Positions 1,079 through 63,533 of a DNA stretch of 64,000 nt are shown here, one piece after another. Numbering within the stretch: the stretch's first letter is position 1; every line of letters starts with the position of its first letter. Position numbers and translations under genes: made by a program. Source of the DNA: Acidobacteriota bacterium (GTDB taxonomy: Bacteria > Acidobacteriota > UBA6911 > JACQSX01); the NCBI GenBank assembly GCA_036507075.1, contig DASXQR010000097.1, positions 1 to 64,000 on the forward strand, written 5' to 3'. The notes under the pieces are model-generated. The model saw only the letters and a program-made list of their open reading frames with translations, ran no database searches and had not been told where the DNA came from.

Positions 1079-1507
1079 TTATGGGACGGTCAGTCCCTCG
1101 GTCCTGGCCAACTTTCCCTGGATGCGATCGAAGGTAAAAAACGCGTCCGCCCGCAACACCAAAGCCGAAGCAACATGGAGAATATCGAGGGTACGGGCGC
1201 CAATTTGCGGTGTTCGCTTCCGGGCAATCTGCTTGGCTTTCTCGAACACCGCGACGCCCCATGGTTGTAATACGAACACACCGGCATCGATATCCTTCTT
1301 AAGCAGCGCATTGGCAGCTTTGATTTTGGAAGGGAGAAGTTCCTTGCGAAAGAGGCGCTGCAAAATCGCATTGGTGAGCTCCAGTTCACCGAAAGGGGTC
1401 AGAAGTATGGGCAGGCTGGCTCGTTTCATTTGTGCAGCAGCGAGAGCGGAGTTTGCATCCAGAACGTACAACGAGACCAGAAAGCTCGGATCGGCGTATG
1501 AGCTCAA
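1079..1507 (-). CDS. vapC: type II TA toxin, VapC/PIN domain
   Basis: N-terminal 'YADPSFLVSLY' and C-terminal 'RTLDILHVASAL...FFTFDRIQ' PIN motifs; ATGA overlap with the upstream antitoxin. Confidence 0.85.
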   Translation of the reverse strand: MSSYADPSFLVSLYVLDANSALAAAQMKRASLPILLTPFGELELTNAILQRLFRKELLPSKIKAANALLKKDIDAGVFVLQPWGVAVFEKAKQIARKRTPQIGARTLDILHVASALVLRADAFFTFDRIQGKLARTEGLTVP

Positions 1508-1746
1508 TAGCGGCCTCGCTCGCGGGAGACAAGTTCCGCTCCCGTCACTTCTGCAGTCTTGCCGCCGTAGATTTTTTTCAAGCGCGCCAGGAAATCTGGA
1601 CGCCGAGAAGAAACCGGAGATTTCGCAGGGATCAGCCGAGCAATGATCCGTTTGCGCTTAGTGATCTGAATCTCTTCGCCTTCGCGGAGAAGATCCTCAA
1701 CTTCCGAAAATCGATAGCGGAGATCACGCACTGTAGCTTTTCTCAT
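1504..1746 (-). CDS. Phd/YefM-family (prevent-host-death) antitoxin
   Basis: MRKATVRDLRYRFSEVEDLLREGEEIQITKRKRIIARLIP; start reassigned to ATG at 1746. Confidence 0.85.
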   Translation of the reverse strand: MRKATVRDLRYRFSEVEDLLREGEEIQITKRKRIIARLIPAKSPVSSRRPDFLARLKKIYGGKTAEVTGAELVSRERGRY

Positions 1747-1783
1747 GTGATGCAATTTAGCATCACTTTGGCTTTCCAGGCAA
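1747..1783 (-). promoter_or_regulatory. probable leaderless sigma70 promoter with overlapping TA operator palindrome
   Basis: Minus strand reads TTGCCT-N18-TAAATT with TG extension, 7 nt before the ATG. Inverted repeat GTGATGC-N6-GCATCAC (1747..1766) straddles the -10 box. Confidence 0.6.
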
Positions 1784-1919
1784 GCCCCCAGCCGAGGCAG
1801 TGAGGTTCGATAAGCGTTAACGGCTCGCCGTCGCGGCCGCACATCTGAACCTGCCCCTCCCGTGGCGCGTCCCGAAGCACAGAGGGGTCAACATCCGCCA
1901 GAATCTGCTCGACCCTGGC

Positions 1920-1987
1920 ACAGCGCTTTGTTGCTCCGACAGATCAATGTACAAAGAATCGGTCTCTGGATAGTAATTCAGCTTCAT
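1920..1987 (-). pseudogene. truncated DUF2283-like antitoxin gene
   Basis: MKLNYYPETDSLYIDLSEQQSA, after which similarity is lost. Confidence 0.6.
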
Positions 1988-2225
1988 GGTTTAAGCCGCC
2001 GATCTAGAAATGCGTTATGAATAGTGACTTTATCATCCAGAGTATGACTCTCAAGAAACGTCCCTCATTTCGGGTAATTTCCGCCCAGAAACGGTAACGG
2101 TTTGTTTTTCTGCGGCTCTGATCGAATCGGATGCTCGAGGGCGCGGATGCACCACTCCATCTTCAGGTAGGGCCGCTGCGCAATACTTCCTTCTCGAAGT
2201 ATTCAGTGAACCGATAGCTTGCCAA
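1984..2225 (-). pseudogene. frameshifted small toxin-like partner of the DUF2283 gene
   Basis: Fragments in shifting frames: YRFTEYFEKEVLR / RPYLKMEW / NRYRFWAEI / DDKVTIHNAFLDRRLKP*. Confidence 0.55.
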
Positions 2226-2306
2226 GTTGAGAAAAAATATCGGAGCGGCAGTCGGGTCCCACAATCAGTCCGATCGGCTTGAACCCGGGCCTTCCTGATT
2301 TAATCT

Positions 2307-2396
2307 TCATGAGATTCGCCGACCAGTCGTGAACTGGTTGATTAAGTCAGTCGCCCCTCGGATGTCTTCCAGGAGCTTCTTCGTTTCAAGCTGCAT
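2307..2396 (-). pseudogene. truncated HEPN (DUF86-like) toxin gene
   Basis: MQLETKKLLEDIRGATDLINQFTTG stops after 29 aa; overlaps the end of the MNT gene as in MNT-DUF86 pairs. Confidence 0.6.
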
Positions 2397-2697
2397 AGAG
2401 CATCGTGCGGGTCTGGTTCACTTTTTCAAGAAAATAATGATTCCTAATCGCGCCGGCCACCACCAGGTCAACTGACCGGTCGAACAATTCCTGCAATGAC
2501 TCAAGCAGTCCGGAATACATATCCGCGTGTTGTCCCGATTGAAGGGCCAAGAATTCCACCAGAAAATCCAAATCACTCTGCTGCGCGTCAAACTGTCTGC
2601 CTTCGGCAGCCCAGCCAAACAGTTCAAACCGCTTAACCCGATACTTCCGGCAAAGTCGGCCGATCTGCTCGCGCTTCTGTTCAATGATCGGAATCAT
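2386..2697 (-). CDS. minimal nucleotidyltransferase (MNT) antitoxin, possibly degenerate
   Basis: 'LFGWAA...SDLDFLVEF...VDLV' motif; the canonical GS is GW here. Confidence 0.8.
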   Translation of the reverse strand: MIPIIEQKREQIGRLCRKYRVKRFELFGWAAEGRQFDAQQSDLDFLVEFLALQSGQHADMYSGLLESLQELFDRSVDLVVAGAIRNHYFLEKVNQTRTMLYAA

Positions 2698-2754
2698 TCG
2701 TTTGGTTCCCTCGGGCTATTATGAGACTGTTCATCGTGCTTCGTCGCGATGGTT

Positions 2755-2985
2755 TCACTTTGCTGCCAGTTCACGCGCGTGGGAAAGGTCGCGCCGGTTC
2801 ACGGGACGCAATTGAGGCAGCTGCACGGTAGTCACGGCCACCGTTTGACTGGTCAGTGTGACAAACTCAACCGCATAGGCTGCGCCGCCTTGATGAATGT
2901 GCACCACTGTACCCACATCACCGGCTCGCAACCCCTCGTCGGGAAGATGCTGCGTTAACACAATACAATCGTGTTCTTTGATCAT
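2755..2985 (-). CDS. DUF4926-family protein
   Basis: MIKEHDCIVLTQHLPDEGLRAGDVGTVVHIH...YAVEF; GGAGG RBS before ATG 2985. Confidence 0.8.
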   Translation of the reverse strand: MIKEHDCIVLTQHLPDEGLRAGDVGTVVHIHQGGAAYAVEFVTLTSQTVAVTTVQLPQLRPVNRRDLSHARELAAK

Positions 2986-3323
2986 AATTCCTCCACAGGA
3001 TACGCGGTGATGAGTCGCGGCGCAATCTGCCCTTTGTCCATCTGCCAGACCGTGCACACGAGCGGCTGGCGGCCATCCGGCACATAAGCTTGCCTTCCAC
3101 TTCATATCGGCGACCAAAACCGGTTTCTTTCAATTTGCTCACCTCATGCTGGCGGCCATGTTCGCGCAAGGCACGGGCCAGGATTGTCCACTCTTCCGGG
3201 CGACAGCCGAACTGCGCAAAGAACCGGGCCATGCTCGCGCCGAAACGATGCTGGCTGATTGAGCAGACACCTGATAATCTTGCCCTCCTCGACAACAGCT
3301 CCTTCAGCGTTTTGCACTCTCAT
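2982..3323 (-). pseudogene. frameshifted DUF6883-like gene (usual partner of DUF4926)
   Basis: MRVQNAEGAVVEEGKII..., ARFFAQFG...LARALREH...GRRYEVEG and VWQMDKGQIAPRLITAYP lie in different frames. Confidence 0.65.
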
Positions 3324-4157: not shown

Positions 4158-5312
4158 TTACCCGGGCGAAGTTGCTGGAGAGAAGTTTCGAACTTTCCCG
4201 ATCGTGATCCGCCGGGAGCGATAGACTTCGGCGACCCCGACAGCTGAAAGCAAGCGCCGATTTGGAGAGTCCTCTTGCAGTTCCTGATGAGCCAGGAGAG
4301 TTCGCACTACGTCGAGGGTGGCTGGCTCGCTCCAAATTGGCCACGTCCAATACGTGTCGAAACTCTTGCGTCCCCGGAAACCAGTGGTAGCAACGAACGA
4401 TGCTTGAGGTGCTGTTGGCAACAACGGAATTCCTTCGATCGCAAGGCGATTCGCTCCAAGTACGGTTCCTTGTTTCTTGCGGACGGGATCGCCGCTCGGG
4501 TTTCGCCAGCGGAGCGCGTAGCGGACGTCATCAATCGGGTCCCAGCGGAGTGTGAGATTTTCTACCGGGTCATCGTAGCACCAGAGCGAAAAGAGTGCCT
4601 TCTCGAGGTGGTTAGCTGTCGTGGCAAGGACAATGTTGCGCATGAACGCGAGGAAATGCTGGTGGCCCGCGCCAGCCATCGTTCGAAGCCCTGTATCCTG
4701 AATTCTGCCAGCTTCATCTGTAACAGCTTCGCACCCGAAAGCCGCCGCGAAATCGGCGATACTTCGGTCATCGTGGGAGGCCGCCTGGGAAGCAGTCGCG
4801 GCAAAGTGGGCGAAGTCTGGTGCGGAGAGAGTTAAGTCGTCAGCAATCAGCAGGTGCGGACAGGCGATCTGGAGCAAGCCGAGTCTTGCCTCCTCGATAG
4901 CTACCTCGAACGACAGGATCTGCTCAGGCAGCCTTTCCCGCAGACGTTGACCGGATAAGCGTTGCTTCTTCAGAGTTTTCTCCCGCTCCCTCTCGTCATT
5001 GCCTTGCTGTGCACAAGCGGCAATGAACTTCGCTTCCCACTGCTTGGCCTCCTGACGGCGGCCGCGAAAAGCTCCGTATCGACACGCAGTGGCGACTTCG
5101 TCGAGCAGTTCATTTGAACTGATTTCGGGCTCTAGAATCATTCTCGGCCGCCACGCTCCGCGGTGGGGCTGCCAGCACATCACGACTCGGTGCTCCGGCA
5201 AACTGAGCGACAGCAGGCGCAACGTTCCGAGCGAAGCTAGGAAGGCGAGTGGATTTCCTCCGTCTAATCCAATGAACAGTACGCCATCATGGTTTTCCTT
5301 GCTTGAATTCAT
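4158..5312 (-). CDS. csb3: type I-G Cascade large subunit, Csb3/Cas8u2-like
   Basis: 'GLDGGNPLAFLASLGTLR', 'LRWDP...RYALRW.NPS', 'GANRLAIEG.PL' and 'WPIW' motifs; ATGA-coupled to cas3. Confidence 0.85.
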   Translation of the reverse strand: MNSSKENHDGVLFIGLDGGNPLAFLASLGTLRLLSLSLPEHRVVMCWQPHRGAWRPRMILEPEISSNELLDEVATACRYGAFRGRRQEAKQWEAKFIAACAQQGNDEREREKTLKKQRLSGQRLRERLPEQILSFEVAIEEARLGLLQIACPHLLIADDLTLSAPDFAHFAATASQAASHDDRSIADFAAAFGCEAVTDEAGRIQDTGLRTMAGAGHQHFLAFMRNIVLATTANHLEKALFSLWCYDDPVENLTLRWDPIDDVRYALRWRNPSGDPVRKKQGTVLGANRLAIEGIPLLPTAPQASFVATTGFRGRKSFDTYWTWPIWSEPATLDVVRTLLAHQELQEDSPNRRLLSAVGVAEVYRSRRITIGKVRNFSPATSPG

Positions 5313-8300
5313 GCGACTGCTCCTTTGACGTGGGGATCACGCTGGGCAATGTTCTTTTCCGCTTCGTCTTCGCTTTGGCGGTGATCGGCCAACATGAATA
5401 TGGCTTCCAGCCAAGCCAAGCCCCACCAACCATACCGCCGAACAAGCCGCCAAAAGCGTTCGGCAGCGCCGCTACTGAGTCGGTGCGCCGGAATCCACCG
5501 TTCTCGATCGCTCTGACTGATGGAAAGCCCATCAAAGACACCGCGAAGATCGATCCCAGGGGCGCCTTCGTCGAGTACGACTTGCGCCAACGGCCGGCAA
5601 AATCCGTGGTGGCAAGCTATCACATGGAGAACAAGGTCGCGGTCAATGTCGTCTCCGGTAATCAGCTGGTTAAAATCCTGGACAATTTTGAGTGAAACTT
5701 GTTCGTGCCTGAATCCATCGGGCAATCCGCTTGCATCCCAGGCGTTGCTTCGTGCATCACGATCGTCCACGAGCCCTCCGGACTTGGCGTAGAGCATCGA
5801 TGCCAGAGCTGCGCGAAGTGTGTTCCCTCCGTGTAGAAAAGCTTGGAATCGCGGGTCGGCTTTGCCAAGGTCATGGAGATGTCCGGTTACCAACATGCTC
5901 TGGACGATACTATTGCCAAAACCGCACTGTCGTGCGAAATCGGCGGCACGCCGTGCAACGCCATCGCTGTGCGCCTTGAGTGAGATGTTAGTGGTCGCGG
6001 ATGCGCTATCATCTTCCGTTGTGTAGGTCTCGGGTTGCATGAACTCCAATCGGCGATCAACAGGCAGCCGCTGTGATCCACGAATGACCACTCCGCCGAA
6101 GGGATGCGGCAGCCACTTGGCACGTGTATCCTCGACCACTAGGGTAATCAATCGGCGCACGTGCTCGGCTATTTGTGCAGACGCAGCAATTCCGCGCAAC
6201 AAGTCGCGGATCTCACGACGCTCAAGCTCTGCTTCCGGATCGGACAGAAGCTTTAGCAATTCCGCGTGCTCGTCGGGTTCGGACAGCTCCGCAGTTTCGC
6301 GCCAGTTCTTCACCAAGACACGGTGGAGCCGGAGCATCGCGTGCCGCCGGGCCTCGACATAGCAGTGATCCGCAACGTCGATCTGTGCCACATCGGCGAT
6401 TCGGAGTGGAATGTGTCCAAAATCGTCCCAACCACGGAGACTGGCGGGCAATACGATGGTGTCACCAGGACGAAGGTTGTCCCCCTGGGCGTCGAGAAAC
6501 TCACTGTCCTCCGGGCCTCGCCAGAGGACGCCGAAGGCAATCGGTTCCGGCCTAGGGTGCAACTCGACTTCACCCTCGGTACTTCCCGCTTCGATATCCG
6601 CAATCGCGGCGTCACATCGAAACCCTTCCTCCGCAGAACGCCACCAGCGACGGAAAGCCCACAACGGCACGGGGAGGCATTCAAGCACGGTCGGGGGACA
6701 GAGCGAGACTGCTTCGACGGCTCGGCTTCGGAGGCGATCACGTAGACGGCTTTTTTCGACATCCGCCAGATCGTCTTTAACATCGACGCTGCCATGCTCG
6801 GGCAGGTCTGCTCGCCAGCATACTTGCACTTCGGGCGCGCCGCGCTGCGGCCCGTGCAGGAAAACCGCCAAGTTCGGATCAGGACGCGGAACAGGCGATG
6901 TCTGTACCCAACAATCGACGTGAGCAGGCAACAATACCGGGGCATCCGGAGAGGGCGGAACAAGCATCGAACGCTGCTCCGGTTCAACCTGAGCAACCAG
7001 CTGACTAATTGTCGTGATACCGAAGTCGATTTCTGGCTCTGATAGATCGAACCCGACAGCGTGTTCGGTGAGCCACTGCCATGTGTTAGGGATCGCTTGG
7101 CCGTAAACGGGATCCACCACCGCCGTGTCTTTCTGATCGGCGCGGATGACAATCGCGCCGCGAGCGTCGCAGTCGGTCCGTCCGATCCGGTTGAGCCGTC
7201 CGAAACGCTGCTGCAAGGCGTCGAGACTCGCACACTCACTCACCATGCCATCAAAATCCAAATTCGCCCCCACCTCGAGGCACTGCGTCGCAACAACAAT
7301 CGCGGGACGGGGTACCGCTGGTCGCTTGCTCGACGTTCCAAACCAGATGAGCAAACCGCGCGCTGAGTTGGGTGGGCTCGCATATGGCGCCCAGTTTTCC
7401 ATAAGCTCGTCGCGATCGATGGAGCGCATCCTGCCGGTCAGCAGGACAGCGTCAAACTCGCCTGGCAGCAGCGTGGCAAGCTGGCGGATGTGTCTCCAAT
7501 CGACGTCCGGGTCTGCGTCTCCTGGATCGCGGACAGCACAAAGTAACCGGTAGATCATGCGAGCGGTATAGACTCGGTTTACCAAAATGGCGATTCGCTG
7601 GCGTGAGTTAGAGACTAATTCGGCAGCTCGGACGACCAGTTCGGCCGTGAGTTCGTCGAGTGCCCGCTTTCCCTTTGCCTCTGTCGCCACGATTAGACGC
7701 GTTGGCTTGGACGAAGTCACGCGACGACGCAGCACTTCGCAGTCGCGCAAGTCCTCGCTCTTTTCGTTTACATCGAGCCGCAACACGTCGTTAATTCCAG
7801 GCGGCGGAGTCGCGGACATGATCGTGAAATGGAACGGCCCGCCGAGGTGCTCCCGTGCCCACCGCTCCCCACGGTAGCGTTCGACCGCCTGCATCGTCTG
7901 AAGGAATGGGTTCGCGCAATGAGCTTCATCAAGAATGATCAATGCATCGTTTCCTGCCAGACCTGCATGGATCGGCCATGCCTTGAACGATCGGCCATAA
8001 CCGCGAAACAGCAGACGCGAACCGATTTGATCGACCGTACTGGCAATCACACACGGCTGGGTGGGCGTGCGTGCCCATGCATCGTCGCGGTACATACCAC
8101 CGCGAAGCTGGTAGCAGGTGAGTGGCGGCGCATCGGTTGTCCCATTCACTTTCCGTAACGCCTGGGCGACTTCCCAAAGAATTCCGTTACTCGCAGCATC
8201 CAGTCGCTCGGCAAGATTCAAGGCGTGCTCGAAAGCCTCGTCAACAATGACGCGTCTATCAACGACGAAAAGAATGCGTCGCACCGCCGTGCGTTCCTGT

Positions 8301-8515
8301 AATGGCAGCTCGGCTTGGCAAGCCAAGGCAAAGACAGCGATATCCAGGCAGGAGGTCTTACCACTGCCGGTTGGCAAGGCTATAGCTTCCGGCCAGACGC
8401 GCTGAGGCGGACGCGCCGTGAGCACACGTTCCACGAGTCGTTCTTGCCAACGGAAGGGGTTGCAATCACTCACCGCGCGAAAGAACTCACCGAAGTCTCC
8501 GAGTCCGATGCTCAA
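5309..8515 (-). CDS. cas3: type I-G Cas3 helicase-nuclease with C-terminal HD domain
   Basis: Helicase motifs LPTGSGKT, DEAH, MSAT, VATQ.LEVG and QRFGRLNR; C-terminal HD motifs HSDGV, LHDLGK, RHE, CHHG and LADH. Start reassigned to TTG 8515 (GGAGGAGG RBS, TTGA overlap with csb2). Confidence 0.95.
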   Translation of the reverse strand: MSIGLGDFGEFFRAVSDCNPFRWQERLVERVLTARPPQRVWPEAIALPTGSGKTSCLDIAVFALACQAELPLQERTAVRRILFVVDRRVIVDEAFEHALNLAERLDAASNGILWEVAQALRKVNGTTDAPPLTCYQLRGGMYRDDAWARTPTQPCVIASTVDQIGSRLLFRGYGRSFKAWPIHAGLAGNDALIILDEAHCANPFLQTMQAVERYRGERWAREHLGGPFHFTIMSATPPPGINDVLRLDVNEKSEDLRDCEVLRRRVTSSKPTRLIVATEAKGKRALDELTAELVVRAAELVSNSRQRIAILVNRVYTARMIYRLLCAVRDPGDADPDVDWRHIRQLATLLPGEFDAVLLTGRMRSIDRDELMENWAPYASPPNSARGLLIWFGTSSKRPAVPRPAIVVATQCLEVGANLDFDGMVSECASLDALQQRFGRLNRIGRTDCDARGAIVIRADQKDTAVVDPVYGQAIPNTWQWLTEHAVGFDLSEPEIDFGITTISQLVAQVEPEQRSMLVPPSPDAPVLLPAHVDCWVQTSPVPRPDPNLAVFLHGPQRGAPEVQVCWRADLPEHGSVDVKDDLADVEKSRLRDRLRSRAVEAVSLCPPTVLECLPVPLWAFRRWWRSAEEGFRCDAAIADIEAGSTEGEVELHPRPEPIAFGVLWRGPEDSEFLDAQGDNLRPGDTIVLPASLRGWDDFGHIPLRIADVAQIDVADHCYVEARRHAMLRLHRVLVKNWRETAELSEPDEHAELLKLLSDPEAELERREIRDLLRGIAASAQIAEHVRRLITLVVEDTRAKWLPHPFGGVVIRGSQRLPVDRRLEFMQPETYTTEDDSASATTNISLKAHSDGVARRAADFARQCGFGNSIVQSMLVTGHLHDLGKADPRFQAFLHGGNTLRAALASMLYAKSGGLVDDRDARSNAWDASGLPDGFRHEQVSLKIVQDFNQLITGDDIDRDLVLHVIACHHGFCRPLAQVVLDEGAPGIDLRGVFDGLSISQSDRERWIPAHRLSSGAAERFWRLVRRYGWWGLAWLEAIFMLADHRQSEDEAEKNIAQRDPHVKGAVA

Positions 8516-9996
8516 GTCTCGTCCTCCTCCACGGCGAGCGGGCGACATAGGCCGTATCCGCGATACCGACCAGCCCCAAGCAATACCGGACCGTGTACGG
8601 CGCACGGAAAGGTGATGACTGCGTGGGTCTGCCGAATCATTCCGTCGTCGGTTTTGCGCTGGATGCGGGGCATCTGGCGAGTGTGTGGCGAACCGATGAA
8701 CATCGACACAGGAGCCGCAATCACATCTTGGGGTTGGGGCAAGCCGATCCGTTCACAGCCATCAGCGATGGATCTCTCTATTTGGGAATGTGGGTCGTCA
8801 AACTTCGCATGCCGATCGATTGCTATGGGCGTGACCGTTGCCCAACGCCGCGACGGCCCGGTCCAGGTCTCGCTCCGCAATGCGTGACGGTATGCCTGTC
8901 CCTCATCGAGTTCGAGCACGCACTGGCCAAGTTTGCCGAGCACCAGTCGGATTTGCTTAGGCCAGCCTGCATCATCGAAAAGAAAAGCACCAAGACATCG
9001 CGCGATCTCCGACTGTGTTATATCGGACGGCACCGCAACGGCGAGACCAAGCACGTGACCGTCGGCATGCTTACGACCGACATGCGGCAAAGGCACAAAC
9101 GCCAAGTGTCCGGCGGTTCTCTCACTGCGTTTTCCGTCAGCTTGGTGACCACTGACCCATTCCGGCGGCGGTTGCACTGGGGACATGGACATGATCGTGT
9201 CCCGCAGCGCCTTCGTGAGCAGCAGCGTGGATTCCAACCCGAATGACCGACCTTCAATCTGTCGCAGGATGATCAAGCTCTGCGCAAGATAGGGTGAGGG
9301 GATCTCCGTGCGGTCAGCTATCACCATTGCGGGCGAGTATCCCTGCCACACCGATCCAGCAGGGCGCAGACCCGCATCAAACCGCGACCTAAGTTGCGTG
9401 AGTCGGCCGGGGCAAAAGATCCTGAGGCGATGGCGCGACCCGTCGTCGTTCAAAGGCCGGAGGATTTGGCGATTATTCAGATTAGGCACGGTGGGGGGCA
9501 CTTCAAACTGGTCAGCCACCCACATCTGCACCATCGACGCCGAATGTCCAACCGCTGTCACCTTGCCGGCGAGGGACGCTAAAGCAGTTGACTGATCTGG
9601 CGATGGCTGTGCATCCCTCCAAAGTAGATGCACAACCGGATTGTCCGGGATTGCCACAGGAAACTGCCGCGGCTGCCGGTCGCGTCCGATGACCAGGGAA
9701 CCGGCTGACATGAGCGGTTTGTGTTTCTTGATGGGACTGGACGTGTCATTGACCGGGACGAAAGTCGTGACTGATTCGGGCGATCGGGCTGGCGACGCTA
9801 CAACGATCGGCGGCGACTGACGTTCGAGCCACTCAAGTGCGCCACGTTCTCGTTCATCTCCCTCGGTTTCAAAATGCGCCGCGGCCAAGGCCATGAAAAC
9901 GCGGTCCGGATGTGGCGGCCATTCCGCTTTCTCGCGATCCGCCGGGTGCGTCGCCATCGCCCAGCCGTTTAGGTAGTGAATGCCAATGCTAAACAT
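8512..9996 (-). CDS. csb2: type I-G Csb2 (Cas5-Cas6 fusion)
   Basis: 'EWPPHPDRVFMALAA', 'LPHVG...ADGHVLG', 'WATVTP' and the G-rich C-terminal 'GPVLLGAGRYRGYGLC' loop. Confidence 0.95.
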   Translation of the reverse strand: MFSIGIHYLNGWAMATHPADREKAEWPPHPDRVFMALAAAHFETEGDERERGALEWLERQSPPIVVASPARSPESVTTFVPVNDTSSPIKKHKPLMSAGSLVIGRDRQPRQFPVAIPDNPVVHLLWRDAQPSPDQSTALASLAGKVTAVGHSASMVQMWVADQFEVPPTVPNLNNRQILRPLNDDGSRHRLRIFCPGRLTQLRSRFDAGLRPAGSVWQGYSPAMVIADRTEIPSPYLAQSLIILRQIEGRSFGLESTLLLTKALRDTIMSMSPVQPPPEWVSGHQADGKRSERTAGHLAFVPLPHVGRKHADGHVLGLAVAVPSDITQSEIARCLGAFLFDDAGWPKQIRLVLGKLGQCVLELDEGQAYRHALRSETWTGPSRRWATVTPIAIDRHAKFDDPHSQIERSIADGCERIGLPQPQDVIAAPVSMFIGSPHTRQMPRIQRKTDDGMIRQTHAVITFPCAVHGPVLLGAGRYRGYGLCRPLAVEEDET

Positions 9997-11228
9997 TACT
10001 CCTCCCCGACAGCCTGGGAAGCCAGTTCCTGGCTCCTGCGAACCAACTCAATAAGCTGCGGCGACGGTGTGAGCACAAGTTCCTTCTCACGCCATGGCAA
10101 GCCTGCATCCTTCGCAGCTTGCAGCGCGTCGTTGAAAAGAGAAATGGCAGCGTTACCCGAAAGGTTGAACTTCGCCGGTTCTTCGCCTGGTTTATCCAGC
10201 AGTTCCCACATGACGGGCTCAGTGGGGACGAGCTGGCAACGCGATCGTAAATCGCAGCCTTGTTCCTCAGTAAGAGCCCCCGCGCAAAGTGCAAGCGCCG
10301 CCAGCGTGGCTCGTGCAGCAGCATCAATCTTTCCATCAGACTTGGCATCGCCATTCAGAGGAAATCGCAGGCGGCGGAGCGCTGGCAAGGACACAACGGT
10401 CGTTTGCACGGCATGACGGATGGTCACCCCACCATCGGCAATTGTGGGTGTTACATTGCCATGATTCGCCTCGGACGGTCGACCGTCTTTGCCAAGCTTG
10501 ACGGGCTCCTTCTTAGTCTTGCTTACAGTAGCGGCCTTTTCAGGATCGAGCGTCCATCCGATGCCATGTGTCTCGGCAGCCTTGTAGAGCGGGCCGGCGC
10601 TAAGTTGTATTTGCAGCGGGTCGATACGGCTGCTCGTCTTCTTCTCGATCTGTGCATCGATGCCAATGATTTCAGAAACCACCGCTCTCGCGAACTTGGC
10701 TCCGAGCCCTCCTTTTGGACCTGTCGAATCCCACATCCCAAACACGAGTGCAGTGGGACAGATTTCGAACAACGCTGTCGCATTCCGCCCATCGACGTTG
10801 TCCAACCGTTTGCCTAATTCACTTTTTCGGAACGGCTTTCCATCCATCAAGCTGTCGCGAATGATCGCGTCTGCGACGCGATGTGGCATTTCGAGGCTGG
10901 TAATCCGCAGTACTTTCTCAAGCTGATTGCCTTTGAAATCGACCGTGATCACAGGGAGTGAGATTTGGTCCGCTTCCCAGGCATCCAACAGGGCCAGCTC
11001 CATCCGATTTGCCTGCGACTGCACAGAATCGAGTAATACGCGATCCGCCTTTTTGGTTTCGCTGTCGACGCGCAACCCGACGGTGGCATATCTCCCGCCT
11101 TCATACGTTGGCGGAAAAATAGTGGACCCCTCACCTCCAGCTGGCTGCAATTTCGTTACAGAGCGAAATGCGGCAGCTGTTCCGCGAATGGCGTGCTGAA
11201 GCTTTTCCAGTGTCAAGCTGTCACTCAT
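9996..11228 (-). CDS. csb1: type I-G Cas7 backbone subunit Csb1
   Basis: 'LQPAGG...FPPTY', 'LLDSVQSQANRME', 'PHRVADA' and 'PTALVFGMWDS' motifs. Start reassigned to ATG 11228 (GAGGAGG RBS). Confidence 0.95.
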   Translation of the reverse strand: MSDSLTLEKLQHAIRGTAAAFRSVTKLQPAGGEGSTIFPPTYEGGRYATVGLRVDSETKKADRVLLDSVQSQANRMELALLDAWEADQISLPVITVDFKGNQLEKVLRITSLEMPHRVADAIIRDSLMDGKPFRKSELGKRLDNVDGRNATALFEICPTALVFGMWDSTGPKGGLGAKFARAVVSEIIGIDAQIEKKTSSRIDPLQIQLSAGPLYKAAETHGIGWTLDPEKAATVSKTKKEPVKLGKDGRPSEANHGNVTPTIADGGVTIRHAVQTTVVSLPALRRLRFPLNGDAKSDGKIDAAARATLAALALCAGALTEEQGCDLRSRCQLVPTEPVMWELLDKPGEEPAKFNLSGNAAISLFNDALQAAKDAGLPWREKELVLTPSPQLIELVRRSQELASQAVGEE

Positions 11229-11354
11229 TTTCTCCTCCTCTTCGAATTGTTCTTGGTATGTGAAAAGATAAAAGCCAATCGAAATAACCCTGAGCTCACC
11301 AAAAGTCTGCCATCCCAGAGTATGAGCTAGCGGCCCGTTTGCGGACATCCGGCC

Positions 11355-11906
11355 TCAGTCTTGAAGCTGCTGCTTTAGTCGCGTCCAAAATCGGGAATAC
11401 CACTGGCGCAATGTTTCGGGTCTTACTCGAAGGTTCTTTGAAAGCAGGTCATAACGTTCACCGTCGAGCAGGGCCAAAATGGCTTCCTGTCGTCGATGGG
11501 GAAGTCCGTTTAGCTCCCGCTGTGCTACTGCCGCAATTTCAGTGACCAGGACTGATCTTTCTGTGGCGTGCAGGCGTTCTGGCCGGAAAGAAACGTGCGG
11601 TCGTGCAAGAATGTCGAATGCGCGCGTCTCTTTGCACATCATGCTAGGCTGTCGTTCAATGACCGCAATTGCGTTCTTACAGCGATTGTTTTTTCGATAG
11701 TACTGAACGCGTACGCACTTCGCGATTTGACAGATTAGCCCCTCTTGATTCTCGGTCCAATCTATTGGGCTGAGCTGCGCGCTCCGTTTCTTGTCATAAA
11801 CTAGAACCTTCAGGCAGACGTCTTGATAAGCGTCATCGATGAACGTTCTGGTTATAAATGGAGGCACACGCAGTTTGAATCTCTCGAGTTGTTCAATCAT
11901 GTTCAT
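11355..11906 (-). CDS. divergent ECF-type (sigma70 group 4) RNA polymerase sigma factor
   Basis: 183 aa. Region-2-like 'DDAYQDVCLKV' and 'LICQIAKCVRVQYYRK'; region-4-like HTH 'LNGLPHRRQEAILALLDGERYDLLSKNLRVRPETLRQWYSRFWTRLKQQL'. Confidence 0.75.
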   Translation of the reverse strand: MNMIEQLERFKLRVPPFITRTFIDDAYQDVCLKVLVYDKKRSAQLSPIDWTENQEGLICQIAKCVRVQYYRKNNRCKNAIAVIERQPSMMCKETRAFDILARPHVSFRPERLHATERSVLVTEIAAVAQRELNGLPHRRQEAILALLDGERYDLLSKNLRVRPETLRQWYSRFWTRLKQQLQD

Positions 11907-11950
11907 ATCTGATTAATCGCCGGCACGATCAATTTGTGACACCTTTCTTT

Positions 11951-11971
11951 AAAACTTGCCCATTCAATAAA
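11951..11971 (-). promoter_or_regulatory. self-target (partial protospacer plus TTT PAM) of the mini-array spacer
   Basis: Minus strand reads TTT-ATTGAATGGGCAAGTTTT; the spacer 5' end reads ATTGATTGGGCAAGTTTT (17/18 identical). Confidence 0.85.
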
Positions 11972-11979
11972 GTTTATAG

Positions 11980-12007
11980 TTGACTTCATGGACGGCGATG
12001 TTACGCT
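11980..12007 (+). promoter_or_regulatory. probable sigma70 promoter of the mini-array
   Basis: TTGACT-N16-TACGCT with TG extension, ~25 nt upstream of repeat 1. Confidence 0.55.
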
Positions 12008-12032
12008 GACAGGCTGATAGGAAGCAACGAAT

Positions 12033-12142
12033 TCCGTTCCAGGATCTTTTTCCTGGCCCCATTGAAGCATTGATTGGGCAAGTTTTTTTGGATCACCAGC
12101 ATGAACAATCCGCGGTCATCAAGACCGCGGCCCCATTGAAGT
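12033..12142 (+). CRISPR. CRISPR mini-array: two non-identical type I-G-like repeats and one 38-nt spacer
   Basis: R1 12033..12068 TCCGTTCCAGGATCTTTTTCCTGGCCCCATTGAAGC (stem CCAGGA/TCCTGG); spacer 12069..12106; R2 12107..12142 AATCCGCGGTCATCAAGACCGCGGCCCCATTGAAGT (stem CCGCGGTC/GACCGCGG). Both end in GGCCCCATTGAAG, typical of I-G repeats. Confidence 0.85.
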
Positions 12143-12649: not shown

Positions 12650-12960
12650 GCACCCCTGCGCGCCAAAAGTTGGCGCGGCCACACGGCTGGTATGCTTCCG
12701 CCCTGTCGCTTACATGCAGCTTCAACCGCAAGTGCCCGCAGTCTGGTAACAAATCCCCGCGCCCGTGCGGGCCGAAGTCCAAATTTACGAGGGAAAGGGG
12801 GCTGTAAGCTCGAATTCTAAGACGTTACAGGCCGCAATCAAGCTTTATTGGAAATTGCAAAACTGGTTAACAACAAAGGCACAAAGGTATCCCGGGTCAA
12901 CTCTGTGCCGTTATTGGCTAGCGCGGTTGAGTTCGTTCCATGTCTGCAACCTTATCAACT
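12650..12960. repeat. copy A of a ~310-bp dispersed direct repeat containing a minus-strand promoter and operator
   Basis: Aligns with 15904..16223; shared core TCGAATTCTAAGACGTTACAGGC.GCAATCAAGCTTTATTGGAAATTGCAAAACTG. Confidence 0.9.
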
Positions 12961-15006: not shown

Positions 15007-15429
15007 TTAACCTGGTCGCTTTGCACGTTGAAACTTGCTACTCACCAGGCCGACAATGGCCTGGGCCGCATCGACGGCCCGGCCTCCTTGCTCCTGGGTA
15101 TAAGACTGAAACGGGACGGCAGGGGGAGCAAGGGCATCCGGGTAACGAGTGGGGATATAGTATTGATCCAGGATCCGGCCTGGCCCAATATGCGTCGAAA
15201 AATCACTGTCCATCTGCGAGCACATCTCAGCCAATTGCGCCACCGAGTGAATCGGAACAGAGCGATGACCCGCCCCAACCAGAAACCCCTTCAAGGCCTT
15301 CTGGCTTGACTGCTCGGCCATAAAACAAGCGTCGGAGTAGTCCCCTCGCTCTTGATGGTTGCGGGCCACCACCAGGTCATGCTCAGCCTGGAGCAGCCAG
15401 CGCAAGCCCACTTCATGTCTCGGCTTCAT
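15007..15429 (-). CDS. HEPN domain protein (MNT-HEPN toxin)
   Basis: 'WLLQAEHDL...ACFMAEQSSQKALKG...HS...LDQYYIPTRYPD'. Confidence 0.9.
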   Translation of the reverse strand: MKPRHEVGLRWLLQAEHDLVVARNHQERGDYSDACFMAEQSSQKALKGFLVGAGHRSVPIHSVAQLAEMCSQMDSDFSTHIGPGRILDQYYIPTRYPDALAPPAVPFQSYTQEQGGRAVDAAQAIVGLVSSKFQRAKRPG

Positions 15430-15482
15430 AGACCGTCTTCCCGTTCAACCCACCGAATCAGACCACATCTTCCACGAGCGCT

Positions 15483-15797
15483 TCACCGCTCAGCTTCATA
15501 CACCACTTTCCCGTCGCGGAGCGCCTCGGTAATGAAAGCGTTGTCCTCCTGCAGCATTGCTTCAATCTCTTGCGGAGTGTAGACCAGGATATCGGCTCGA
15601 ACGCCGGCAGGGCACAGACGAGCCATTGCCTCGAGCCTGGCGACAAAAGGCTCCTGCGTCTCCTTGATCACCAATAGATCGAAATCGCTGGCGGCATCAG
15701 CGTCGCCACGGGCAGCAGAACCAAACAGGATGATCCGCTGCGGACGATAAGGCCGAAGCGCCTCCAATAAGGCATCAAGAGATGCGTTCATGGACAA
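15483..15797 (-). CDS. minimal nucleotidyltransferase (MNT) antitoxin
   Basis: 'ILFGSAARGDADAASDFDLLVI...DILVYTPQE'. Confidence 0.9.
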   Translation of the reverse strand: MSMNASLDALLEALRPYRPQRIILFGSAARGDADAASDFDLLVIKETQEPFVARLEAMARLCPAGVRADILVYTPQEIEAMLQEDNAFITEALRDGKVVYEAER

Positions 15798-15903: not shown

Positions 15904-16223
15904 GCACCGCTGAGAGGCGAGAGTTCGCGCGACCAGACAGCTGGCATGCTTCCGCCCTGTCATTTACAGCCAGCTTCAGACGCAAGTGGCTGCAATCCGG
16001 TGAACAAGTCCCCGCGCCCGTGCAGGCCGAAGTCCAAATTTACGAGCTAAGAGGGGCTGTAAGATCGAATTCTAAGACGTTACAGGCGGCAATCAAGCTT
16101 TATTGGAAATTGCAAAACTGATTAACCACAAAGACACAAAGGGCACAAAGGTGTCCGGGTTAACTCTGCGCCGTTAGTGGCTCGGATGGCCCACTTGTTT
16201 CCCGGTTTGCGACCTCATCAACT
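15904..16223. repeat. copy B of the ~310-bp direct repeat
   Basis: Aligns with 12650..12960; lies directly upstream of the MNT-HEPN pair on the minus strand. Confidence 0.9.
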
Positions 16224-16789: not shown

Positions 16790-17845
16790 TCAGCGCTCGA
16801 CATTTTTGCGGGCGTAAGACCGCCCTCCCGCGGCACGTTCGACCGGGCGGCTCGGTTTTTTTGCCGGAGGGGTCCGATAGAGCGAGGCTGCCAGGAGACA
16901 TTGCTCCGAGACAAGATTTCGCAGCGATGCCGGCTCAAGCACCTGCGCCTGTGCGCCGAAACTCAAGATCCATTTCTGGAGATCGACCCCGGGATGGACA
17001 TGCATCGTGAGCTCAACACCCAAAGGTCTAACCGTCAGGGTCTGTGAGGGATGCCACTGGTGCTCACTGACCAGAACTGCGGCCTTGCCGGTAAACCGAA
17101 TTCGCACCTGCTCTGGTTCACCCTGCCAGATTTCAAAACTCGCTTCGAACGCAGCCTGAGGCGATGTCCCCGCGGGCACAAAAGTTTGATCCGTGGCACG
17201 CAAGTCGCGAATGCGGCTGATGTGGAAGGTCCGCATTCCTCGCCGCTCGTGACAGAACCCCCAGATGTACAGATTCGGATGGGCCGTGATAATCGCATAA
17301 GGGTCGACAAGCCTCCGTCGAACTTCGCCGGTGTTGAGGGCCTGGTAGACAATTTCAGTCGTTTTGTGATTTATGATCGCGTCACCGACCTGCTCATCAA
17401 TATAGCGGGGACTGAGCGCCGGGTGAATGTTTCTTGGTCCGGTAATAAGGATTGCAGCCTCTGCCTGCTGCAGAAAGTCACGCTTCTTGTCGGTCAGCCC
17501 CGCGAACATTTTTCCGCACAGCGATCGCAGGGCTGCGGCTCCAGGGAGCTGCTGCTGCTGCGCAGTGATGTTTGCAGAATGGAGCGCCATCAACTCATGT
17601 GCGTCCAAAGGCATCGGCAGCGAGGTGCGACCGTCAAGAAACCATACCACCTGCTTGCCGCGCATTTCGGAGTAAATCTGAAACCCGGCATCTTCCAGTG
17701 CAATGACATCACGTTGGATCGTCCGCAACGCGGGGACGACGTCCGGTTCAAGGGTTTGCATTAGATCGGAGTACGTCGCTCCGTAACGCAATTCAGCCAA
17801 GCGACGCAGAATCTTCCATTGTCGGATTAGCTGCCGATTTCGCAC
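16790..17845 (-). CDS. HTH-WYL-WCX transcriptional regulator
   Basis: N-terminal wHTH 'RTIQRDVIALEDAGF', WYL 'RLVDPY...LYIWGFCHERRGMRTFHISRI', C-terminal 'WILSFGAQAQVLEPASLR'. Confidence 0.92.
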   Translation of the reverse strand: MRNRQLIRQWKILRRLAELRYGATYSDLMQTLEPDVVPALRTIQRDVIALEDAGFQIYSEMRGKQVVWFLDGRTSLPMPLDAHELMALHSANITAQQQQLPGAAALRSLCGKMFAGLTDKKRDFLQQAEAAILITGPRNIHPALSPRYIDEQVGDAIINHKTTEIVYQALNTGEVRRRLVDPYAIITAHPNLYIWGFCHERRGMRTFHISRIRDLRATDQTFVPAGTSPQAAFEASFEIWQGEPEQVRIRFTGKAAVLVSEHQWHPSQTLTVRPLGVELTMHVHPGVDLQKWILSFGAQAQVLEPASLRNLVSEQCLLAASLYRTPPAKKPSRPVERAAGGRSYARKNVER

Positions 17846-18085
17846 GGGCTACTCCCTTCTGGTGCGGCCATTGACGGTTTACCGCTCACTGTTACGTTAT
17901 AAGAGAGACTGGATTGTAACGTTCGCCAGGGAAGAATTCAATGCAACGGAAACTGCGCTTTCCTCTGGAAATCATTCATTCCCAAATTGAAACCATCCGG
18001 TTGGTAAAGCTCAGCCACGACGTGGGCCGGTAAGAATCTCCTGCCAAAACAGAAGGCCCATTTGTCAGGCCGCCAAGATGCTGGC

Positions 18086-18355
18086 ACACTCGTGCTGTAT
18101 GAGTGGTTGCGAGGCCCTTGGCTCGAAGAGGAGCTGCTGGATCAGCAGGGCCTTTTCCCTGACGAATCAATTACACCCTTTGGCCGAGAGGAAGCTGCCA
18201 TCGCCGCAGGACTGCACCGACGCATTCGGCGCCCGCGGGGACGTGAACTTGACGTTGCAATCGCGGCTTGTGCAATTGCACAGAACGCTGTGCTGTGGAC
18301 GCTGAATGTGCGGGATTTCGAAGACATCCCGGGACTACAAGGTGTCGAAACCTGA
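18086..18355 (+). pseudogene. 5'-truncated VapC/PIN toxin
   Basis: 'VLYEWLRGP...DVAIAACAI...LWTLNVRDFEDIPGL'; the N-terminal catalytic D(T/S) strand is missing and no antitoxin is seen. Confidence 0.7.
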
Positions 18356-20934: not shown

Positions 20935-21055
20935 GACAGGGACTGAGGGACTGAGAGACTGAGGGACTGAGAGACTGATTCCGTTCCCTCCGTCCCTCCA
21001 TCTCTCCATCTCTCCATCTCTCCATCTCTCCATCTCCCAGTCTCTCAGTCCCTCA
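20935..21055. repeat. palindromic element with 8-nt tandem units (GACTGAGG / CCATCTCT); related copy at 62492..62697
   Basis: Visible tandem 8-mers forming inverted arms. Confidence 0.85.
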
Positions 21056-21118
21056 ATCATTAATTTGGGTCTGTGCCCCACTTAAACGGATAATAGGTTC
21101 ATTTGTCTGGGAGGGTGA

Positions 21119-43989: not shown

Positions 43990-44153
<164 letters not shown>

Positions 44154-44154
44154 C

Positions 44155-44946
44155 ATGCTGAAGACCAATAAGGCAAAACAAACCCTGAAGGACGGCGGCG
44201 TCTGCTTTGGGACAATGCTGCGCCTGCTGCATTCACCGCACGCCATACCCTTGTGCGCCTCGGCTGGATGGGACTTCATCATTATTGACACCGAGCACGG
44301 TGACTTTGACTCTGAGACACTGGCGGGAATGTGCGTGGCTGCCAAGTATGAGGAGCTGGCCCTGCTGGCGCGCGTTCCCGACAAGCTTTATCACCAACTG
44401 GCCAAGCCGCTCGATCTGGGATTGGAAGGGCTCGTCATACCTCGCGTGGAAGAAAGCGCAGAAGTGCAGCACATTCTGCAATCCACCAAATACCACCCGA
44501 TGGGCGCGCGCGGCGCCAGCGTGTCGACAACGGCGACCCTGTTTCGAGATCACGATGCCGTGTCTTACATGGAATGGGCCAACCGCGAGACATTGATCGT
44601 GGTTCAGGTTGAATCCCAGCGCGCCGTGGAGAATGTTGACAAGATTGTCTCGGTCTCCGGTGTAGACGCGGTGCTCATCGGACCGTTCGATCTTTCTCAA
44701 AGCATGGGAATCCCGGGCCAGACTTCCCATCCGCGCATGGCCGATGCTTTCCGGCGCGTGATTGAGGCCTGTAAGCGCCACCATGTCGCGCCCGGCATTC
44801 ACCTCTCTTCCATCGAATCGGCGGCGCAGTGGGTCAAAGCGGGCATGCGGTTTGTAACCTACAGCTACGACGCCAAGTTCCTGCTCGATTCCAGCCAGGA
44901 GGCGGTAAAGCAACTGCGTGACATAGCTCGGCACCCGAAAAACTGA
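44155..44946 (+). CDS. HpcH/HpaI aldolase family
   Basis: 'IDTEHG', 'PMGARG', 'QVES' and 'IGPFDLS'. Confidence 0.9.
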   Translation: MLKTNKAKQTLKDGGVCFGTMLRLLHSPHAIPLCASAGWDFIIIDTEHGDFDSETLAGMCVAAKYEELALLARVPDKLYHQLAKPLDLGLEGLVIPRVEESAEVQHILQSTKYHPMGARGASVSTTATLFRDHDAVSYMEWANRETLIVVQVESQRAVENVDKIVSVSGVDAVLIGPFDLSQSMGIPGQTSHPRMADAFRRVIEACKRHHVAPGIHLSSIESAAQWVKAGMRFVTYSYDAKFLLDSSQEAVKQLRDIARHPKN

Positions 44947-61456: not shown

Positions 61457-62491
61457 ATGAACCGCCCTCCCCTTCGCACCACCGTGATTGGCAGTTATCC
61501 GTTTCCTGGATGGCTTGAGTTTGCCTGCCGGCATCTTGATAAATTCGGCACGGACGACGTGGAGGAAATGATCCAAGACGCGGTGGTCGCCGCCATCCAC
61601 GATCAAATGAACGCCGGCCTGGATGTAATCACCGATGGCGAGCAAACCCGCCTCGATTTCAATCTGTCCTTCTACGGCTTTCTTGAAGGGATTGAGCGAG
61701 AAACCGAGACGGCTCGACGTTTCGGCCCTCCCGCTCACGACCAGCGGGGTAAACATCCCGTGACCGGTGAAATCCGGGCGCCGCGAGGATTGGGCGTGGT
61801 TGATGAATTCGCACGCCTGAAAAAGCTGGCGCCTAAAGGTCCCGCATTAAAGGCCAGCGTGCCGGGTCCCTATACGCTGAGCGGGCGCCTGATTCCGAAT
61901 GCGGCATATCCGGATCGATACGCGCTGACAGAGGCGCTGCTGCCGATTGTGCGTGCAGAACTGGAAGCGCTGGTACGAGCCGGCTGCACCGAGATTACGG
62001 TAGACGAGCCATCGATGAGCTGCTATGCGCACCGGGAAGATCCCGAGCGCTTCGTCGAAATCTTTAACCGCACCGTTGCGCCCGTTTCAGGAAAGTGCCG
62101 GCTCTCGATTCATCTCTGTTTCGGGAACTACAAGGGCAGAGCGGTGGGCTTGCGTCGCTACGCGCCCATGTTCCCGGCATTTCTGGAAATGAACGTGGAT
62201 GAAATTCACGTCGAAATGGCGAGCCGTGAATTTGCCGAGATTGAGCTAATCGGCCCGATCAGCGACCGAAGAGACGTGGCGGTGGGAATCGTCGATGTAA
62301 AGAGCTATTACATCGAAACCGAAGAAGACATAGCCCATCGCGTGCGGCTCTGCCTGCGTCACGCGCCGCCGCAGCGTGTCTCCTTTGCGCCTGACTGCGG
62401 CCTCAGCCAGACAGCGCGGTGGGCTGCACGGATCAAACTGAAGAACATGGTAGCCGGCGTAAGGCGGGTGCGGGAGGAATTGGGGGGCTAG
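61457..62491 (+). CDS. cobalamin-independent methionine synthase II-like protein (MetE C-terminal domain only)
   Basis: 'TTVIGSYP', 'ITDGEQ', 'GPYTL', 'HLCFGN' and 'PDCGL'. Confidence 0.85.
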   Translation: MNRPPLRTTVIGSYPFPGWLEFACRHLDKFGTDDVEEMIQDAVVAAIHDQMNAGLDVITDGEQTRLDFNLSFYGFLEGIERETETARRFGPPAHDQRGKHPVTGEIRAPRGLGVVDEFARLKKLAPKGPALKASVPGPYTLSGRLIPNAAYPDRYALTEALLPIVRAELEALVRAGCTEITVDEPSMSCYAHREDPERFVEIFNRTVAPVSGKCRLSIHLCFGNYKGRAVGLRRYAPMFPAFLEMNVDEIHVEMASREFAEIELIGPISDRRDVAVGIVDVKSYYIETEEDIAHRVRLCLRHAPPQRVSFAPDCGLSQTARWAARIKLKNMVAGVRRVREELGG

Positions 62492-62697
62492 CGATGGAAG
62501 GATGGAGGGATGGAGGGATGGAGGGATGGAGAGATGGAGGGATGGAGAGATGGAGAGATGGAGGGATGGAGCGATGGAGAGATGGAGAGATGGAGAGATG
62601 GAGGGATTGCCCTCCTGTTCCTCCATCTCTCAGTCCCTCCATCCCTCTTTCCCTCAGTCCCTCCATCCCTCAATCCCTCAATCCCTCAGTCCCTTCA
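62492..62697. repeat. long 8-nt tandem repeat palindrome (GATGGAGA/GATGGAGG ... TCCCTCAG)
   Basis: More than 10 tandem 8-mers followed by the complementary arm. Confidence 0.9.
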
Positions 62698-63533
62698 TCT
62701 ACCGTCCAGCGCTCGCCGCAGCGCAGGAGCTTGTGCGGTTGCCGCAGCCGCTCGGCTTCGGCTACGAATTCGTCAGGCGACGCGGTGTTGAACTGAAACA
62801 TCTCATAGTGGCACGGGATGACCAGCCCGGCCCCCATGCTTTTGGCGAGAGCGGCGGCTTCAGGTCCGGTCAGATTTCCAGCGACCCGGCGCGCCCGGGA
62901 GCGTCCATTGATCGGAAGCAGCGCCACAGTGACGTTATAACCGCGCAGTCTTTCCGCCAATCCGTCGTAATCAACGGTGTCGCCGCTGTGATAGACCGTC
63001 CAGCACCCGAATCGAATGACATAGCCGAGAAACCGGCAGCGCCCCTGTTCGTCGCGTTGAATTTCCTCGTGGGCGGAAGCGACGCCAATGAAACGAAATG
63101 GTCCGACGTGCACCATCAGGCTGTCATCAATGCCCAGCAGCGCGTCCGCTGAAATTCCCAGGCGCTGCGCCGCAAAATCACGGTTTGCGCTGGGGACGAT
63201 CATCTGCGCAGCCGGATTTTTCCGCAAGATTGGGACCACCGTTTCTGCGTCCAGATGGTCCGAATGATTGTGGCTGGAGCTGATCACTTCGATGAAGTCC
63301 AGCCGGTCGGGGGCTACGACACGCGCCGTCATTCTCACATGCGGCTTGTCGGTGCCTGCGTATTTCCGGGTAAGTGAGTCAGAGAGGTAAGGATCAATCA
63401 GAAGGTGGTGGCACTGCCACCGGATCAAGAATCCGCTCTGGCCCAGCCACCAGAGATGAAAAACATCCTGATTCTTCTGCGCTCCCTTCACGTCGGCCAG
63501 AAACTGATCATCCTTCAAAACGGGTTGTATCAT
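62670..63533 (-). CDS. MBL-fold metallo-hydrolase (UlaG-like)
   Basis: 'WLGQSGF', 'IDPYLS', 'SHNHSDHLD', 'HSGDT' and 'IPCHY'. Confidence 0.9.
   Translation of the reverse strand: MIQPVLKDDQFLADVKGAQKNQDVFHLWWLGQSGFLIRWQCHHLLIDPYLSDSLTRKYAGTDKPHVRMTARVVAPDRLDFIEVISSSHNHSDHLDAETVVPILRKNPAAQMIVPSANRDFAAQRLGISADALLGIDDSLMVHVGPFRFIGVASAHEEIQRDEQGRCRFLGYVIRFGCWTVYHSGDTVDYDGLAERLRGYNVTVALLPINGRSRARRVAGNLTGPEAAALAKSMGAGLVIPCHYEMFQFNTASPDEFVAEAERLRQPHKLLRCGERWTVDEGTEGLRD

Follow-up and report, generated by a model that had tools for sequence, protein, structure and literature searches.

A two-repeat mini-array with a predicted CreR-like guide facing an ECF-sigma-factor-like gene in a type I-G CRISPR locus

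Positions 12033 to 12142 of the window (the whole 64,000-nt stretch of DNA that was analyzed) hold a mini-array of two repeats, with a repeat-spacer-repeat organization, that adjoins a type I-G cas operon. Its hairpins have the geometry of type I-G repeats, its spacer has a unique PAM-flanked target next to the operon, and the same design is found in many related loci. The mini-array is real and looks functional; most likely, it encodes a CreR-like guide, which would be a predicted extension of a known mechanism to type I-G systems. What appears to be new here is the recurring placement of such guides over a sigma-factor-like gene, along with a three-nucleotide mismatch signature in the guides.

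The locus is of type I-G and, on the minus strand, comprises the genes for an ECF-sigma-factor-like protein (11355..11906), Csb1/Cas7g (9996..11228; the ORF opens at 11348, with the likely start at 11228), Csb2, a Cas5-Cas6 fusion responsible for crRNA processing (8512..9996), the Cas3g helicase-nuclease with its Walker A, DEAH, and HD motifs (5309..8605), and a short, large-subunit-like protein of the type I-G Cas3-extension family (4158..5312; NF049934). All these genes, including cas3g, are uninterrupted. The sigma-like ORF is separated from csb1 by 126 nt, which could accommodate a separate, unrepressed cas promoter. Since cas1 and cas2 were not found in the genome, which is 95.7% complete, and the only ordinary array is on another contig and is cut by its end, this CRISPR system could be incomplete or decaying. 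The operon sits in a stretch that resembles a defense island (window positions 1079-3117, 15007-15797, and 16790-18355) and contains a PIN gene with a Phd/YefM-like partner, a nucleotidyltransferase, a DUF4926 protein, a HEPN-MNT pair, a WYL-WCX regulator, and another PIN gene. An element of 239 nt is present at 12650-12887 and 15904-16142 (86% identity) and nowhere else in the genome; its two copies bracket an uncharacterized 429-aa ORF and a HEPN/nucleotidyltransferase pair. Intergenic runs of 8-nt tandem repeats are found at 20969-21082, 44088-44162, and 62466-62723.

The degenerate first repeat, R1 (12033..12068, plus strand), consists of a 6-bp hairpin, formed by CCAGGA at 12039-12044 and TCCTGG at 12051-12056, followed by CCCC and the exact 8-nt handle ATTGAAGC, so that CCCCATTGAAG comes right after the stem at 12057-12067. 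The second repeat, R2 (12106..12142, plus strand), is close to the ordinary repeat of this genome and has an 8-bp hairpin, formed by CCGCGGTC at 12110-12117 and GACCGCGG at 12123-12130, with the same CCCCATTGAAG next to it at 12131-12141. Between them lies the spacer (12069..12105, plus strand), 37 nt long when R2 is taken to span 37 nt and 38 nt long in the ungapped register of the scripts; its first 18 nt represent the guide part. R1 folds with -9.5 kcal/mol (z score of -2.0, 7 of 200 shuffled sequences being equally good) and R2 with -16.3 kcal/mol (z score of -4.3, none of 200), so both hairpins can be considered real. The initial annotation had described two repeats that differ in their stems and retain the hairpin and the 3' handle, and this description was borne out by both the sequence and the folding. 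The two repeats share a certain asymmetry with those of the relatives: R1 keeps the exact 5' handle and R2 keeps the 3' hairpin with its 8-bp stem. No target was found for the sequence 3' of R2 and, therefore, there is no second guide; an Rfam search produced no match anywhere in the window. Three DNA sequencing runs, two of which may be the source of the analyzed DNA, showed no variant letters. With just two repeats, alike in 18 of 36 positions, a single spacer, and no cas1 or cas2 found, this element does not qualify as an ordinary CRISPR array.

Both stems end 4 nt before the 8-nt handle. The Csb2 protein of Thioalkalivibrio, as described in the available part of Shangguan 2022 (PMC9638904), cuts 4 nt below the hairpin, before the 8-nt handle, and is a tight binder of the repeat hairpin. 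By this published geometry, the predicted cuts fall after position 12060 in R1 and after position 12134 in R2 and would release a product of 74 nt (12061-12134), a normal crRNA size for this system. According to the available part of a preprint on the Bifidobacterium Csb2 (10.1101/2022.08.19.504415), the stem is not essential for cutting. Because the stem would be dispensable for cutting whereas the hairpin is tightly bound, Csb2 binding may be the object of selection on the stems, above all for R2. The hairpin has been retained despite the change in its sequence. The earlier suggestion that the structure is selected for processing by Csb2 stands insofar as the hairpin has been kept by two-sided stem changes, which do not separate cutting from binding.

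These changes become apparent from a comparison with the genome's one ordinary array that has the same handle. This array is found at the end of contig C193, where it occupies the last 420 nt, is cut by the contig end, and includes one truncated and one degenerate repeat. The exact 13-nt handle occurs twice in the window and otherwise only in this array (six exact matches genome-wide). The degenerate last repeat is on the side expected if the handle represents the 3' end, which supports the plus-strand reading of the mini-array. The C193 repeat matches R2 in 29 of 36 positions with one gap (by hand count) and R1 in 18 of 36 positions without gaps. The six stem pairs that can be compared are all kept in R1, R2, and the C193 repeat (18 of 18 cells are paired), and three of the six, two in R1 and one in R2, have changed on both sides. 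This compensatory pattern was matched by 23 of 500 shuffled sequences and slid controls paired in 28 to 44% of cases, in a comparison that covers three sequences and a structure chosen by the analyst. The C193 spacers have no full self-match.

The 5' end of the spacer matches, in 17 of 18 positions, a partial protospacer at 11951..11968 on the minus strand, with the sole mismatch at position 6. Adjoining this protospacer is TTT (11969..11971, minus strand), a form of TTN, which is the PAM of type I-G systems according to Shangguan 2022 (PMC9638904); the same source, in its available part, describes Cas7 as flipping out every sixth base. With every sixth position left free, this site is the unique best one in the 6.1-Mb genome, with a run of 18 and the next best run of 12; among the 677 genomic sites with TTN plus the seed, the next best run is 10. 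In 1,000 shuffled spacers, the best local match was at most 13 of 18. A relaxed rule adds one more site, of 14 nt, on the same contig outside the window; a match of 17 is attained by the local site alone. The ATG codon of the ECF-sigma-like ORF, which heads the same-strand run of genes, comes 62 nt after the target, and only ∼80 nt separate the target from R1. Just downstream of the protospacer, at 11935-11941 of the minus strand, there is a TGTCACA sequence, which we take to resemble an ECF-type -35 element. Because of this resemblance and the lack of a clear ribosome-binding site in the sigma-like ORF, the promoter of that gene could possibly be nearly leaderless and self-driven.

The initial annotation placed the target correctly and overlooked the sigma-factor-like nature of the gene directly behind it. 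The 183-aa product of this ORF (11355..11906, minus strand) resembles ECF sigma factors. Direct sequence searches with this ORF retrieved only the protein itself and one weak hit, and the Atlas groups it with sigma-70-like clusters. A profile built from 11 equivalently placed ORFs of the relatives aligned with it in hhalign (97.5%, E value of 6e-12), a second profile comparison with the relatives' ORFs gave an E value of 2e-15, and the family profile matched solved ECF sigma factors over both domains (positions 19-163, E value of 2e-18), in agreement with the presence of region 2 and region 4 domains, as in ECF sigma factors. The match to TIGR02937 had an E value of 1e-4, below the family cut-off. 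The fold obtained from the single sequence was poor (pLDDT of 45); a further model had a pLDDT of 78 and a pTM of 0.41, and ECF factors were ranked at the top in its Foldseek search, with TM scores of only ∼0.3. In these searches, the ORF matched ECF sigma factors and no toxin family. As a putative ECF sigma factor, it may bind RNA polymerase and direct it to a promoter. Bipartite promoter words shared by the regions upstream of the sigma gene and csb1 showed no clear excess over shuffled sequences in a comparison of low power.

Genome searches for the locus with a single protein found nothing, and the related loci were obtained with a Csb1 alignment. It yielded 160 loci in addition to the present one; an upstream region of at least 500 nt was available for 141, and removal of 5 near-duplicates left 136. 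In 35 more distant csb1 loci (L002-L036), which are outside the 136, no two-repeat array was found in the 1.5-kb flanks. Two-repeat mini-arrays were detected in 33 relatives. When the matches were scored regardless of PAM and seed, TTN flanked the best local match for 28 of the 33 mini-arrays; of the two controls, the sequence 3' of R2 gave 3 of 33 and swapped pairs gave 7% of 1,056. The P values of this comparison overstate the significance, as the relatives are kin and not independent. Matches in at least 14 of 20 positions with TTN were found for 27 of the 33 mini-arrays and for 10 of the 1,056 swapped pairs; five mini-arrays have no TTN-flanked local target. Under a rule drawn from the same data (TTN plus a match in 11 of the 12 positions that are not multiples of 3), a guide with its target is present in 39 of the 136 loci, compared to 1 of 492 swaps. 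Stems of at least 5 bp that end 4 nt before the handle are present in R2 of 27 and R1 of 14 of the 28 loci (shuffle means of 5.6 and 4.5, respectively), in a count that includes the present locus and a handle filter that fixes two basal G's. This Csb2 geometry in the relatives, along with the stem-pair changes, lends support to the earlier view of the mini-array as a regulatory CRISPR-like RNA, specifically one of type I-G.

The guides of these 28 loci tolerate mismatches in a regular manner: positions 6, 12, and 18, where Cas7 flips out the base, are mismatched in 19, 18, and 19 of them, respectively, and positions 3, 9, and 15 in 25 of 84 cases, whereas positions not divisible by 3 (within 1-17) have 14 mismatches in 336 cases. 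Beyond position 20, pairing of guide and target is at the chance level. A three-nucleotide periodicity was reportedly observed for the type I-E Cascade by Jung in 2017; the available parts of two papers on Cascade R-loops mention only a 6-bp periodicity. The target lies within 130 nt upstream of the array in 14 of the 28 relatives; the remaining 14 targets are farther away or on the opposite side of the array, but still close to the gene that would be regulated.

The sigma-like gene is found upstream of csb1, on the same strand, in 13 of the 136 loci, and in 11 of these 13 (one of which required a looser handle filter) the guide is aimed at its 5' end; no such guide was found in L044 and L131. 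The sigma-directed targets are mostly 40 to 70 nt before a plausible start codon, 7 of them on the strand of the gene and 4 on the opposite one. Under the strict rule, 9 of the 12 relatives with a sigma gene have a guide, compared to 29 of the 123 without one. Loci that combine the sigma gene with a guide are scattered over a quickly built Cas7 tree (9 changes among their 10 rows), which includes two unrelated long rows, probably wrong-frame translations; the named sigma relatives are all planctomycetes. Other genes are found next to the mini-arrays as well. In L114, L175, and L195, upstream of csb1, a PIN/DUF3368 gene on the strand opposite to csb1 has the TTN-flanked target of the guide next to its 5' end, making these loci candidates for CRISPR-repressed toxin modules in type I-G. 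Similar ORFs of 163 to 171 aa adjoin the mini-array in L042, L087, and L189, between it and csb1 and on the array strand; they belong to no clear Pfam family, with a weak APH match in L189, and are possibly kinase-like cargo. Look-alike ORFs of 73 to 81 aa, with no confident Pfam family, are found directly behind the target and before csb1 in L046, L107, and L162.

The initial annotation was right about the location of a candidate mini-array promoter (11980..12007, plus strand), which reads TTGACT-N16-TACGCT and includes an extended -10 TG. This promoter is plausible, but it was not called by the promoter tool and may be a chance occurrence; nor are sigma-70 promoters enriched upstream of the relatives' arrays (4 of 28 loci, with shuffled sequences giving 1.9). 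In the 11150-12050 region, no promoters were called for the sigma-like gene or csb1. The PAM (11969-11971) is 8 nt away from the candidate -35 box, in agreement with the earlier statement that the target lies within ∼10 bp of it.

Very probably, Cascade loaded with the mini-array guide binds its target without cutting it and blocks transcription of the sigma-like gene, along with, probably, that of the cas operon, acting as a CreR-like feedback brake. The mini-array would be transcribed on the plus strand, and Csb2 would be expected to cut each repeat 4 nt below the hairpin, producing a crRNA-sized RNA of ∼74 nt (12061-12134). Guide-loaded Cascade would then bind the TTT-flanked site at 11951-11971 and, because pairing stops after 18 nt, the DNA would be bound but not destroyed, judging from other subtypes. 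The bound complex would block the promoter region of the sigma-like gene, where an overlap of the target with a real promoter is assumed, as well as the csb1-csb2-cas3 operon if all these genes are on one transcript. Such negative feedback can be expected to relax whenever Cascade is scarce, occupied by ordinary crRNAs, or inhibited by an anti-CRISPR. More tentatively, Cascade in a widespread group of type I-G systems may use the guide to silence a dedicated ECF sigma factor encoded in the same locus, with RNA replacing an anti-sigma protein; depletion of Cascade or an anti-CRISPR would then free the sigma factor and lead to amplified cas expression or activation of a wider defense regulon, with the guides recording the three-nucleotide periodic mismatch tolerance. 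We regard this second proposal as possible, though short of probable.

The position of the target directly before a non-cas gene would also suit an addiction module of the CreTA/CrePA kind, in which a harmful gene, either the sigma-like ORF or a small RNA that escaped notice, is kept silent by the guide, the cell would suffer if Cascade were lost or inhibited, and control of the cas genes is secondary. The PIN/DUF3368 genes beside the target in L114, L175, and L195 indicate that toxin-type cargo does occur in this family. However, the similarity of the ORF in question is to regions 2 and 4 of ECF sigma factors and not to a known toxin family, and only ∼80 nt between the target and R1 are available for a separate toxin RNA, which makes this explanation an unlikely one. 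The chance is smaller still that the guide chiefly represses its own divergent promoter, buffering Cascade and hardly affecting the sigma-like or cas genes. The PAM next to the candidate -35 box, the protospacer that spans the AT-rich stretch upstream of that box, and the targets within 130 nt upstream of the array in half of the 28 relatives would all fit such self-repression, but the candidate promoter is not significant, and the other half have targets that are remote from the array or beyond it and close to the gene that would be regulated. Self-regulation of the guide, suggested in the initial annotation, is therefore plausible and unsupported; it is possibly a side effect rather than the purpose.

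Recurrence of the sigma-like gene beside the guide target could be taken to mean that target-bound Cascade recruits the locus-encoded sigma factor and activates transcription, as does dCas12f with sigma-E, a precedent in another effector class (PMC13472631, in its available part; PDB 9n9q). Against this, the targets are found on either strand of the gene (7 and 4), which fits steric blocking and not recruitment with a fixed geometry, and 29 of the 38 guide-bearing relatives lack the sigma-like gene, so RNA-guided activation appears highly improbable. Just as improbable is the view that the mini-array is what remains of a decayed ordinary array and matches the local site by chance: the absence of detectable cas1 and cas2 and the low similarity of R1 to the ordinary repeat (18 of 36 identical positions, ungapped) would agree with decay, but the compensatory stem changes, the shuffled-spacer control, and the combination of the PAM with the position-6 pattern would not, and this view is already contradicted by the comparative counts, 28 of the 33 relatives sharing this design.

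The feedback brake proposed here would add type I-G to the systems in which Cas proteins are autoregulated through guide-like RNAs, and the comparison of related loci (39 of 136) supports it strongly. If the sigma factor is indeed controlled by the guide, the status of CRISPR surveillance would control a sigma factor, an anti-CRISPR attack could become a transcriptional response, and the locus would represent a two-tier sensor-amplifier. The mismatch pattern of the natural guides (tolerance at positions 3, 6, 9, 12, 15, and 18, with ∼17 nt being enough) predicts off-target binding by type I-G systems and provides a prediction for the design of CRISPRi with this compact system. The type I-G loci that combine a guide with its target offer ready test cases.

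Among the known systems, the closest likeness is to CreR. In the available text of Liu et al. (bioRxiv 10.1101/2023.03.10.532045), CreR autorepression is demonstrated for I-B, I-E, and V-A systems, and creA-like elements found by hand are reported for I-U as well; the CreR mechanism has also been shown for I-F1. Similarly to the CreR of Liu et al., the mini-array consists of two degenerate repeats and one spacer, the first repeat providing the 8-nt handle and the second one the hairpin, and its 5' match of ∼15-18 nt is to a PAM-flanked site upstream of effector genes. Its repeats are related to the CRISPR repeat of the genome, and its complementarity to the target is partial, PAM proximal, and accompanied by the PAM of the subtype. 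In contrast to CreR as described there, the first gene behind the target is ECF-sigma-like and not a cas gene; the word "sigma" is absent from the text of that preprint, whose I-U examples (Figure S7) may include sigma genes. In Shmakov et al. (PMC10120712), where I-G appears only in a table in the available part, mini-arrays are listed for 4% of 235 I-G loci, far below the 39 of 136 loci of the csb1-first clade with guide and target, a fraction obtained by a different method. The mini-arrays described there share with this guide the partial seed match, the PAM, and the mismatch at position 6, and those of type I-D have cargo behind the target, some of it genes for transcriptional regulators; no sigma factor is named in the text or the two supplementary PDFs. 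Term searches found no mention of I-G or I-U in two further preprints and no mention of CRISPR in an ECF classification paper, and no paper describing a guide placed over a sigma factor was found in a literature search that covered few of the subscription papers.

The CreTA/CrePA modules, as presented in the available part of bioRxiv 10.1101/2024.01.05.574328, likewise have a guide-like RNA that is directed to a site between divergent promoters, at a non-cas gene of the locus; unlike them, the locus described here has no identified toxin, and the presumed repressed gene looks like one for a sigma factor. A link between an ECF sigma factor and a CRISPR effector or cas expression is common to this locus, the dCas12f-sigmaE system (PMC13472631), and DdvS (PMC6061681), going by the available parts of these two papers. 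The dCas12f-sigmaE system is a class 2 nuclease-dead activator, whereas the present locus is of type I-G, with Cas3 motifs and no nuclease-dead Cas12f, and it is a guide of the class 1 Cascade that appears to control the sigma gene. DdvS, in turn, is under the control of an anti-sigma protein, whereas here the sigma gene itself appears to be controlled by a Cascade guide.
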